Source of the DNA: Escherichia coli
Lineage (GTDB): Bacteria > Pseudomonadota > Gammaproteobacteria > Enterobacterales > Enterobacteriaceae
Assembly: GCF_003334315.1 (NCBI RefSeq)
Contig: NZ_QOWR01000032.1
Direction: 5' to 3' (one strand)
Length of the DNA: 50,212 nt
Under the pieces are notes generated by a model, which worked only from the letters and a program-made list of their open reading frames with translations, was not told the origin of the DNA and searched no databases. The number at the start of each line of letters is the position of its first letter. Positions within the stretch are counted from its first letter, which is position 1. Below, piece after piece: positions 1-41,912 of this stretch. Made by a program: the position numbers and the translations under genes.

Positions 1-438
1 AGGCCGCAGTCGGTAACCTCGCGCATACAGCCGGGCAGTGACGTCATCGTCTGCGCGGAAATGGACGAACAGTGGGGCTATGTCGGGGCTAAATCGCGCC
101 AGCGCTGGCTGTTTTACGCGTATGACAGTCTCCGGAAGACGGTTGTTGCGCACGTATTCGGTGAACGCACTATGGCGACGCTGGGGCGTCTTATGAGCCT
201 GCTGTCACCCTTTGACGTGGTGATATGGATGACGGATGGCTGGCCGCTGTATGAATCCCGCCTGAAGGGAAAGCTGCACGTAATCAGCAAGCGATATACG
301 CAGCGAATTGAGCGGCATAACCTGAATCTGAGGCAGCACCTGGCACGGCTGGGACGGAAGTCGCTGTCGTTCTCAAAATCGGTGGAGCTGCATGACAAAG
401 TCATCGGGCATTATCTGAACATAAAACACTATCAATAA
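1..438 (+). CDS. insB: IS1 transposase InsB, 5'-truncated by window edge
   Basis: Frame 1 is open from base 1 ([20 protein letters not shown] then [24 protein letters not shown]...HYLNIKHYQ, stop 436..438); this is the C-terminal portion of IS1 InsB as I remember it. Confidence 0.9.
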
Positions 439-453
439 GTTGGAGTCATTACC
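1..453 (+). mobile_element. IS1 insertion sequence, 3' portion (window begins inside the element); right terminus ends at 453
   Basis: InsB-frame translation runs from base 1 through 438; element ends ...ATCAATAAGTTGGAGTCATTACC at 453, which matches the IS1 right inverted repeat as I recall it. Confidence 0.9.
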
Positions 454-1153
454 CACTTGCGTTATCGCGGTGAAAAACGACGTGTTGTTTATCATCTTCA
501 ATGAACGAACCATGCTGAATAGCCACTGCCATTGCCGCATCCAGTCCGCTCAAGGATGTTCCCATAATACCCACGTTACACGCATCGACCTTTGCTTCCA
601 TCAGGCCTGACCACGGGCTGGGAAAATACGTTCGGGTTGCTTCTTCTTCATCAGGCCAGACGTGACCCGTGGCAATCACCGCTAAATCAAACGTCTCGCT
701 GGGTAAATCCTGATTTGTAGCGAGCATGACGCCAGCATTTGTAATTTGCAGATCGGTAACCTGGCATGATTCATAAACAGCCACTGCAAATTTTTGCTTT
801 CGTGCCTGGTCTACTAATCGTAAAAATTGATCGCGGAAATATTCGCCCAGCAGAATTCGCGGTAAAAACTGACGATCGTGCAAGGTTTCTTTTTTAACGC
901 CATAACGCTGGAGATGGCTGGCTTCTTGCTTTTGTAGCCATTCGAGATACGTACAATAAATCGGCGGTATTTCAATACTGGCAATATTTGCCAGCATCAT
1001 TTTTGAGTTTTCCTCATCACTGTATGGCATCCCGACACCGGCCTCGTCAGCCTGCTCGAAGATAGAAATAGAAAGTGGAGTTTGTTGCTGTAGAAGCGAG
1101 AATAAGGTGTAGATCCCCGTAGGCCCGGCACCCACAATAGCAATTTTTTTCAT
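454..1153 (-). pseudogene. ydhS: ydhS (FAD/NAD(P)-binding oxidoreductase) 5' fragment, truncated by IS1 insertion
   Basis: Minus-strand ORF 449..1153 (234 aa) begins MKKIAIVGAGPTGIYTLFSL (Rossmann GxGxxG motif). Recalled YdhS is about 534 aa; here the frame runs into the IS1 terminus and stops at 449..451 inside IS1. Confidence 0.7.
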
Positions 1154-1244
1154 TGTTACTTACCTGTACGCATTCTTTCGAATTTAGTGTTATCAGATAA
1201 GTTTGGTTGAAATTTTTAGAATTTGAGAAATTTCAGACAGGGAT

Positions 1245-1266
1245 GAAAAGGGCGCTAACCGCCCTT
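1245..1266 (-). terminator. Hairpin downstream of ydhR (putative intrinsic terminator)
   Basis: Inverted repeat AAGGGCG-CTAACC-CGCCCTT just past the ydhR stop; on the minus strand it is followed by a modest T-rich stretch. Confidence 0.35.
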
Positions 1267-1278
1267 GATTAAATTCTG

Positions 1279-1584
1279 TCAGGCGAGTTTTGCCTGATTG
1301 ATTTGACTCAGTGGCTCATTGACATCGAAAACTTTGGCGACAACTTCCTCAACGCCGAGATTTTTCAGTCGGGCAGTGTGTTTTTCCAGATAGGCAAGGG
1401 CGCTTTTTTCATCAGTGAAAAGGTAGATCCCACCGGCTTCGTGGTTCTTTTCACTTTCGGTCCATACCTTCCACAGAAAACCAGGTTCCTGATTAATCGA
1501 CTCAGCAAGCGGTTTAAGCTGCTCAGCCATTGTGTCGCCAAATGGGCCATTGAAAGAAAAATGAAGTTGTAACAAAGTTGCCAT
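1279..1584 (-). CDS. ydhR: YdhR, putative monooxygenase (101 aa)
   Basis: ORF track 101 aa [22 protein letters not shown]...; length and position (next to valVW and ydhS) match K-12 ydhR. Confidence 0.85.
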
Positions 1585-1691
1585 AGCGATTCTCCTTCTG
1601 ATAACGCATACGAAGACAGTGTAAATCTTTTAACGTATTGGATACAGAGAAGAAACAGAGGGAAAAAGGAGAAGACCAGATTAAGAAAATC

Positions 1692-1768
1692 TGGTGCGTC
1701 CGAGTGGACTCGAACCACCGACCCCCACCATGTCAAGGTGGTGCTCTAACCAACTGAGCTACGGACGC
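1692..1768 (-). tRNA. tRNA-Val (anticodon GAC), 77 nt, distal copy of tandem pair
   Basis: Reverse complement reads GCGTCCGTAGCTCAGTTGGTTAGAGCACCACCTTGACATGGTGGGGGTCGGTGGTTCGAGTCCACTCGGACGCACCA: cloverleaf with GAC in the anticodon loop and 3' CCA. Corresponds to the valV/valW pair of K-12. Confidence 0.9.
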
Positions 1769-1772
1769 AGGA

Positions 1773-1849
1773 TGGTGCGTTCAATTGGACTCGAACCAAC
1801 GACCCCCACCATGTCAAGGTGGTGCTCTAACCAACTGAGCTATGAACGC
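1773..1849 (-). tRNA. tRNA-Val (anticodon GAC), 77 nt, proximal copy of tandem pair
   Basis: Reverse complement reads GCGTTCATAGCTCAGTTGGTTAGAGCACCACCTTGACATGGTGGGGGTCGTTGGTTCGAGTCCAATTGAACGCACCA; differs from the other copy only by compensatory changes in acceptor and T stems. Confidence 0.9.

Positions 1850-39215: not shown

Positions 39216-41912
<2,697 letters not shown>

Follow-up and report, generated by a model that had tools for sequence, protein, structure and literature searches.

IS1 interruption of ydhS in a clone of Escherichia coli, with the complementary junction in closely related assemblies

The ydhS locus

The window, that is, the whole stretch of 50,212 nt of E. coli DNA that was analysed, starts inside an IS1 element, which is joined directly to the 5′ part of ydhS on the minus strand, and it ends inside a second IS1. 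The features that matter here are listed by window position.

1..453, plus strand: right-hand 453 nt of IS1 (IS1 positions 316-768), with the transposase reading direction antisense to ydhS
431..453, minus strand: right terminal inverted repeat of IS1, GGTAATGACTCCAACTTATTGAT, an exact 23/23 match
449..1153, minus strand: truncated ORF of 234 aa, composed of 233 native codons, Gly and TAA, and starting MKKIAIVGAGPTG
454..462: right-hand copy of a 9-bp target duplication, CACTTGCGT on the plus strand and ACGCAAGTG in ydhS sense (ydhS nt 692-700)
454..1153, minus strand: 5′ part of ydhS, nt 1-700, comprising 233 codons and the first base of codon 234
1279..1584, minus strand: ydhR (monooxygenase), the intact upstream neighbour, assigned by NF008333 (169 bits against a cut-off of 103) and by syntenic annotation
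50137/8-50212 (the last 75-76 bases), plus strand: left end of another IS1 (variant GGTAATGGTGCCAACTTACTG...CCCGTGGCTTCCATCTCCATCAGT), which points the same way as the IS1 at the window start

A preliminary description of this DNA had reported a frame of 234 codons with its stop inside the IS1 terminal repeat, and both the frame and the stop were confirmed from the ORF list and the sequence. Window positions 454-1153 on the minus strand were found by blastn to be nt 1-700 of ydhS, with 700/700 identity to the intact ydhS of CP53, and in the DNA alignment the match to intact ydhS ended precisely at window position 454. By BLASTP, 233/233 residues of the stump were identical to positions 1-233 of CP53 YdhS (WP_000716938.1), a protein of 534 aa, which is the length that the preliminary description had given for the intact protein. 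The alignment to full-length YdhS, which had been suggested as a check, placed the breakpoint after nt 700, with native codons up to 233, and the claim that ydhS is interrupted by IS1 and represented in the window by its first 233 native codons alone held for both nucleotides and residues. Codon 234 is a hybrid, GGG in place of the native GAA, with its G taken from ydhS nt 700 and GG from IS1, and the TAA stop of the truncated frame (window 451-449) is formed by bases 3-5 of the IS1 repeat. Neither a second ydhS-like stretch nor the missing 3′ part was found by blastn within the 50-kb window, and the latter is missing from it because the window starts inside IS1.

The only Pfam domain detected on full-length YdhS, PF13454 (FAD/NAD(P)-binding Rossmann), spans aa 5-164 and lies wholly within the stump. 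The stump was further compared with the YdhS equivalog NF007381 / PRK09897, NF007381 being an FAD-NAD(P)-binding protein equivalog with a model of 535 positions and a curated cut-off of 783 bits; it covered model positions 1-233 and scored 472.3 bits, below that cut-off. The stump is a truncated remnant of YdhS that does not score as a full member of the family.

The native start and upstream region of ydhS are unaltered in the window. The context of the locus is native, since ydhR is intact upstream on the same strand as ydhS, and in comparison with reference loci the gene order from ydhS is retained through ydhR, valW, valV, ydhQ and mdtK. Identity and conserved position together point to orthology of the stump to ydhS, the ydhT side of that position being supplied by sibling contigs only. 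Between ydhR and ydhQ, at window 1692-1849 (minus strand), there are two tRNA-Val(GAC) genes in tandem, which share 92% identity and are separated by 4 nt, as in the references.

The IS1 element at ydhS

An ORF at window 61-438 (plus strand) matched NF033558 transpos_IS1 with 126.2 bits (cut-off 100) over profile positions 100-199 of 199, only the C-terminal half of the transposase (the InsB region) falling in the window. Matches to the terminal repeat GGTAATGACTCCAACTTATTGAT were seen in 0 of 100 shuffles. The part of the element that lies in the window differed from the IS1B copy of strain 042 by 4 mismatches in 453 nt. Two family features of IS1, a repeat of ~23 bp beginning GGT(A/G)ATG and an IS1-type transposase (InsB region), are present in the window itself.

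The rest of the element was obtained from a sibling contig, L006, which carries IS1 nt 1-440. This part and the window part (nt 316-768) were identical over their 125-nt overlap, and joining them rebuilt an IS1 of 768 bp, the left end of which comes from L006. The rebuilt element has an open insA, an A6C −1 frameshift site (TTAAAAAAC) and a left repeat (GGTGATGCTGCC...), and 8/768 of its positions differ from the IS1B of strain 042. With the sibling contig added, the remaining attributes of the family, namely a length of ~768 bp, insA, the frameshift site and the left repeat, were all found.

The complementary junction in sibling assemblies

The InsAB′ transposase of IS1 is made by −1 frameshifting; it binds to the terminal repeats and cuts the target with a 9-bp stagger, and repair of the cut yields a 9-bp target duplication. 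The junction on the far side of the element was found in contigs of sibling assemblies. In L006 (GCA_002462895.1) and L007 (GCA_965251415.1) the sequence reads ...AGTAAGTTGGCAGCATCACC, then ACGCAAGTG, then AAAAGCTAAATATC..., that is, the IS1 left end, ydhS nt 692-700 and ydhS from nt 701 onward, and L026 (GCA_025796285.1, 4 samples) has the same left junction, with the IS1 left end followed by ACGCAAGTG and AAAAGC... Beyond this junction, L006 and L007 continue in native order with ydhS nt 701-1605, ydhT, phsC (ydhU), ydhX, ydhW, ydhV, pykF and lpp, and L026 likewise runs from the junction to ydhT and onward in native order. On NZ_AP021891.1, a reference in which the site is uninterrupted, the window side begins at position 2451 and the left-side contigs extend as far as 2459, an overlap of exactly 9 bp. 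The 9-bp target duplication is therefore found with the sibling assemblies, the window holding its right copy only. The three left-side contigs are mutually close, with 3-6 SNPs in 7-11 kb.

The right and left junctions come from different assemblies among the contigs compared, in which one contig stands for several similar places, and the left IS1 flank of the source genome itself lies outside the window. A simple-insertion model predicted that the 3′ part would be called from Met241 as a protein of 294 aa, and the sequence for this is on record on L006 and L007. For an assembly with only 74 nt of IS1, the model also predicted, before the look-up, a frame of 328 aa that is open to the contig edge and starts DRNRSH...; contig L026 encodes this protein, P0031 (MCV5347675.1 and three more). 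P0031 was the one member of a set of ten predicted partial proteins that was present in the collection, and 9/10 were absent; in most records the 3′ fragment is annotated by NCBI as a pseudogene, without a protein accession.

Distribution of the allele

The exact 234-aa product is on record as WP_310998162.1 / MDS1607368.1 / TFA77689.1. The same right junction was present in 13 contigs from draft E. coli assemblies (NCBI) and Logan runs, all of which break off within IS1, after 28-126 nt of it. Compared with the window over up to 10.7 kb, the 13 contigs show 0-1 SNP and so belong to the same clone. As one piece, the nt-700 junction was found in 0/5,426 complete E. coli genomes using junction queries of 1,300 nt and 251 nt, and the breakpoint site was uninterrupted in 5,419/5,426 of them. 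The allele is already catalogued in public databases and, as an insertional pseudogene, is of an ordinary kind.

Many ‘partial’ YdhS proteins of 234-240 aa are also recorded, on several SNP backgrounds (P0002, P0005-P0007, P0011, P0014 and P0015). The sequence of contigs L012-L019 is native up to their ends at ydhS nt 717-722, which adjoin the polymorphic nt 714 (C/T) and nt 720 (G/A), and contigs L008 and L010 start at ydhS nt 721. An insertion hot spot at codons 234-240 was considered and rejected, as these are native contig ends beside polymorphisms, mostly in Logan runs, and the partial proteins are probably produced at assembly-graph branch points in mixed samples. That explanation does not account for the isolate contig GCA_012186905.1 (L012), which ends at ydhS nt 719. 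In L009 (Logan ERR10986197), positions 1-30, TAGCCAGCTGCTGAGCTACCAAG, are joined to ydhS at ~nt 702, which is 1-2 nt away from where IS1 sits; the join may represent the end of another element or a chimeric contig.

Other mobile elements in ydhS

In complete E. coli genomes, IS1 has entered ydhS independently at least four more times, and one IS1-flanked deletion was also seen. The insertions, each in a complete genome, are as follows.

ydhS nt ~1371, same orientation: IS1 in strain 042
ydhS nt ~360-367, same orientation: IS1 in strain 5CRE51
ydhS nt ~1212, same orientation: IS1 in strain FDAARGOS_944
ydhS nt ~150, same orientation: IS1 in strain CUPS04

These four share with the window the gene, the element family and the orientation, and are simple insertions in which both halves of the gene and ydhT are kept, the halves being annotated as pseudogenes; they differ from it in insertion site and strain. 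The window case is the same in kind as insertional inactivation by IS1A/IS1B-type elements, with the same repeat, transposase, 768-bp length and 9-bp duplication once the sibling contig is included.

The deletion was seen in strain 2017.10.01CC (NZ_AP027800.1, L027 3232-4000), in which IS1A joins ydhS nt ~676 to a truncated ydhV; the 3′ part of ydhS, ydhT, phsC, ydhX, ydhW and the C-terminus of ydhV are gone, with ~4 kb deleted. It resembles the window in that an N-terminal ydhS stump (~676 nt) adjoins an IS1 end, but its IS1 faces the other way, its breakpoint lies 24 nt from that in the window and the far flank is the truncated ydhV. No such deletion is indicated in the clone of the window. 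In strain 2017-19-1CC (NZ_AP027854.1, L024 3213-3980) an IS1 lies in the ydhR-ydhS spacer and ydhS is intact, and this insertion could affect ydhS expression. IS5-family elements are annotated beside ydhS in strains 17MR471 and MB10.

Chromosomal integration of blaCTX-M-15 into ydhS has been described for ST131 clade C2 sublineage L3 (PMC9334617). Judged from the published description, that case is alike in that a mobile element has landed in ydhS and is tolerated there, and unlike in that it concerns another lineage and inserted DNA with a resistance gene. Our literature search found no paper on ydhS together with IS1.

The window ends and the second IS1

Window positions 454-50137 form one gap-free alignment, with 13 mismatches, to normal E. 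coli chromosome from ydhS to malI. Within it, a 96-nt tandem repeat (4.4 copies, 88% identity) at window 39262-39687 lies inside an ORF at 39216-41342 (minus strand), which aligns with reference rsxC, and the same internal repeats are present in the reference.

The second IS1 lies in the spacer between malI and hdhA, ~28 nt beyond the malI stop, and is a sequence variant different from the first. Its variant end is common, being matched at ≥99% by 884 records. In strain VTB97420v an IS1A, with the duplication ACCTGGTAG, lies 0-1 nt from the malI-side site, and IS1 is also found near the malI-hdhA site in three further complete genomes; the spacer looks like a recurrent landing site for IS1. 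As both of its ends lie in IS1, the window probably represents a complete contig of a draft assembly that stops in IS1 repeats on either side, which would explain why ydhS looks ‘cut off’ in it. The direct-repeat IS1 pair brackets 49.7 kb (ydhS′-malI) and could support deletion or amplification of that segment. Siblings L003 and L004 are from contigs of ~95 kb that start at the ydhS junction, of which the first 10.8 kb were compared; their extent suggests that these contigs are without the second IS1 and, if so, the malI-side insertion is the more recent.

Discussion

Our study found two reciprocal junctions and a 9-bp target duplication, which together are the signature of one simple IS1 transposition, and it is very likely that a single event of this kind into ydhS produced an insertional pseudogene with a stump of 234 aa for a protein of 534 aa. 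In the proposed event the target would have been ydhS nt 692-700, where the 9-bp staggered cut would duplicate ACGCAAGTG. With IS1 sitting antisense, translation of ydhS would enter the element through its right repeat and stop after one extra codon. The left junction in the source genome would read ...GGCAGCATCACC, ACGCAAGTG, AAAAGCTAAAT, with the IS1 left end followed by ACGCAAGTGAAAAGC, and GGCAGCATCACCACGCAAGTGAAAAGCTAAAT would represent the IS1 left end, the duplication and ydhS from nt 701 onward. The remaining 914 nt of the gene (nt 692-1605) would be cut off from the promoter and start codon and displaced by 777 bp, because one IS1 and the 9-bp duplication intervene, and ydhT, ydhU (annotated as phsC), ydhX, ydhW and ydhV would stay in place beyond IS1. 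By analogy with the sibling assemblies, we infer that the source genome still has this simple-insertion arrangement. The preliminary description had left it that the downstream part of the gene and whatever lay beyond was ‘replaced or displaced by IS1’; the left junction in close relatives agrees with displacement, by 777 bp, and speaks against replacement, as the 3′ part and ydhT onward are intact there.

An IS1-mediated rearrangement in the source isolate, in which recombination with another IS1 or an adjacent deletion has left the 3′ part of ydhS and ydhT onward deleted or elsewhere, would fit the fact that the other flank of the element is outside the window, and it gains some plausibility from the second IS1 49.7 kb away at the other window end, from the further IS1 copies that the genome carries and from 2017.10.01CC, in which an IS1-flanked ydhS′-ydhV′ deletion has occurred at this very locus. 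However, assemblies of close relatives, in at least three sets, carry the left junction with a perfect 9-bp duplication, and the ancestral event was therefore a simple insertion. In 2017.10.01CC the breakpoint differs and IS1 is turned the other way round, which makes that deletion a separate event. As for the two IS1 copies that end the window, they are direct repeats but belong to different sequence variants, and the DNA that they enclose is intact and colinear. A rearrangement is accordingly considered unlikely. A contig that stops in IS1 at both ends is also what would be expected of short-read assembly halting in repeats, and the IS1-ydhS join might then be a chimeric contig end with ydhS really intact; yet 13 contigs, assembled independently in NCBI assemblies and Logan runs, share the identical junction, and the reciprocal junction was present in others, where a chimera would not yield a matching 9-bp duplication. 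An artefact of assembly is extremely improbable on this evidence.

The 234-aa product might alternatively be a functional short form of YdhS, in which the N-terminal dinucleotide-binding domain works alone, as PF13454 (aa 5-164) is wholly kept and the native start and upstream region are unaltered. Against this, the stump reaches 472 bits where the 535-position model demands 783, the sequence runs on across the breakpoint in 5,419/5,426 complete genomes, and NCBI flags comparable fragments as pseudogenes; a functional short form is highly improbable. The two observations that the preliminary description had named as speaking against an interruption, a natural YdhS of about 234 aa and a reference protein ending at this position, were not made, the reference ending at 534 aa, and a naturally short YdhS was ruled out by that length together with the equivalog score and the uninterrupted site in 5,419/5,426 genomes.

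Following a simple insertion, the stump would be non-functional and the allele null, because the C-terminal 301 residues, which are conserved at full length across the species, are lost. No solved structures related to YdhS by sequence were found. In the native arrangement ydhT converges on ydhS across an 11-nt gap and ydhS is the last gene in its direction, so no neighbouring gene should suffer from polarity. A promoter scan of window 300-1800 found no sigma-70-like site that would indicate a promoter created at the junction.

Loss of ydhS is probably neutral, since the gene can be dispensed with in the laboratory: the ydhS deletion strain of the Keio collection is viable, and it has been reported to be less susceptible to T6SS killing by Agrobacterium (PMC7012810). 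Mobile-element hits in ydhS now include at least five independent IS1 events, IS5 and the blaCTX-M-15 integration. These repeated hits and the reduced T6SS susceptibility of the knockout (PMC7012810) could be taken to mean that loss is selected rather than neutral, which we regard as improbable; the hits may not exceed what a dispensable gene of 1.6 kb would be expected to collect across thousands of IS1-rich genomes.

In summary, the importance of this insertion beyond annotation is little. The junction (IS1 right end joined to ydhS nt 700, with the duplication ACGCAAGTG) could serve as a marker for the clone, because it is absent from 5,426 complete genomes and common to a set of drafts. The 234-aa ORF should be annotated as the 5′ half of an IS1-split ydhS pseudogene, and not as a short ‘pyridine nucleotide-disulfide oxidoreductase’, the label that it carries in some records. 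More generally, a gene that appears ‘truncated’ at a contig end within an insertion sequence is usually a split gene, the other half of which lies on another contig.
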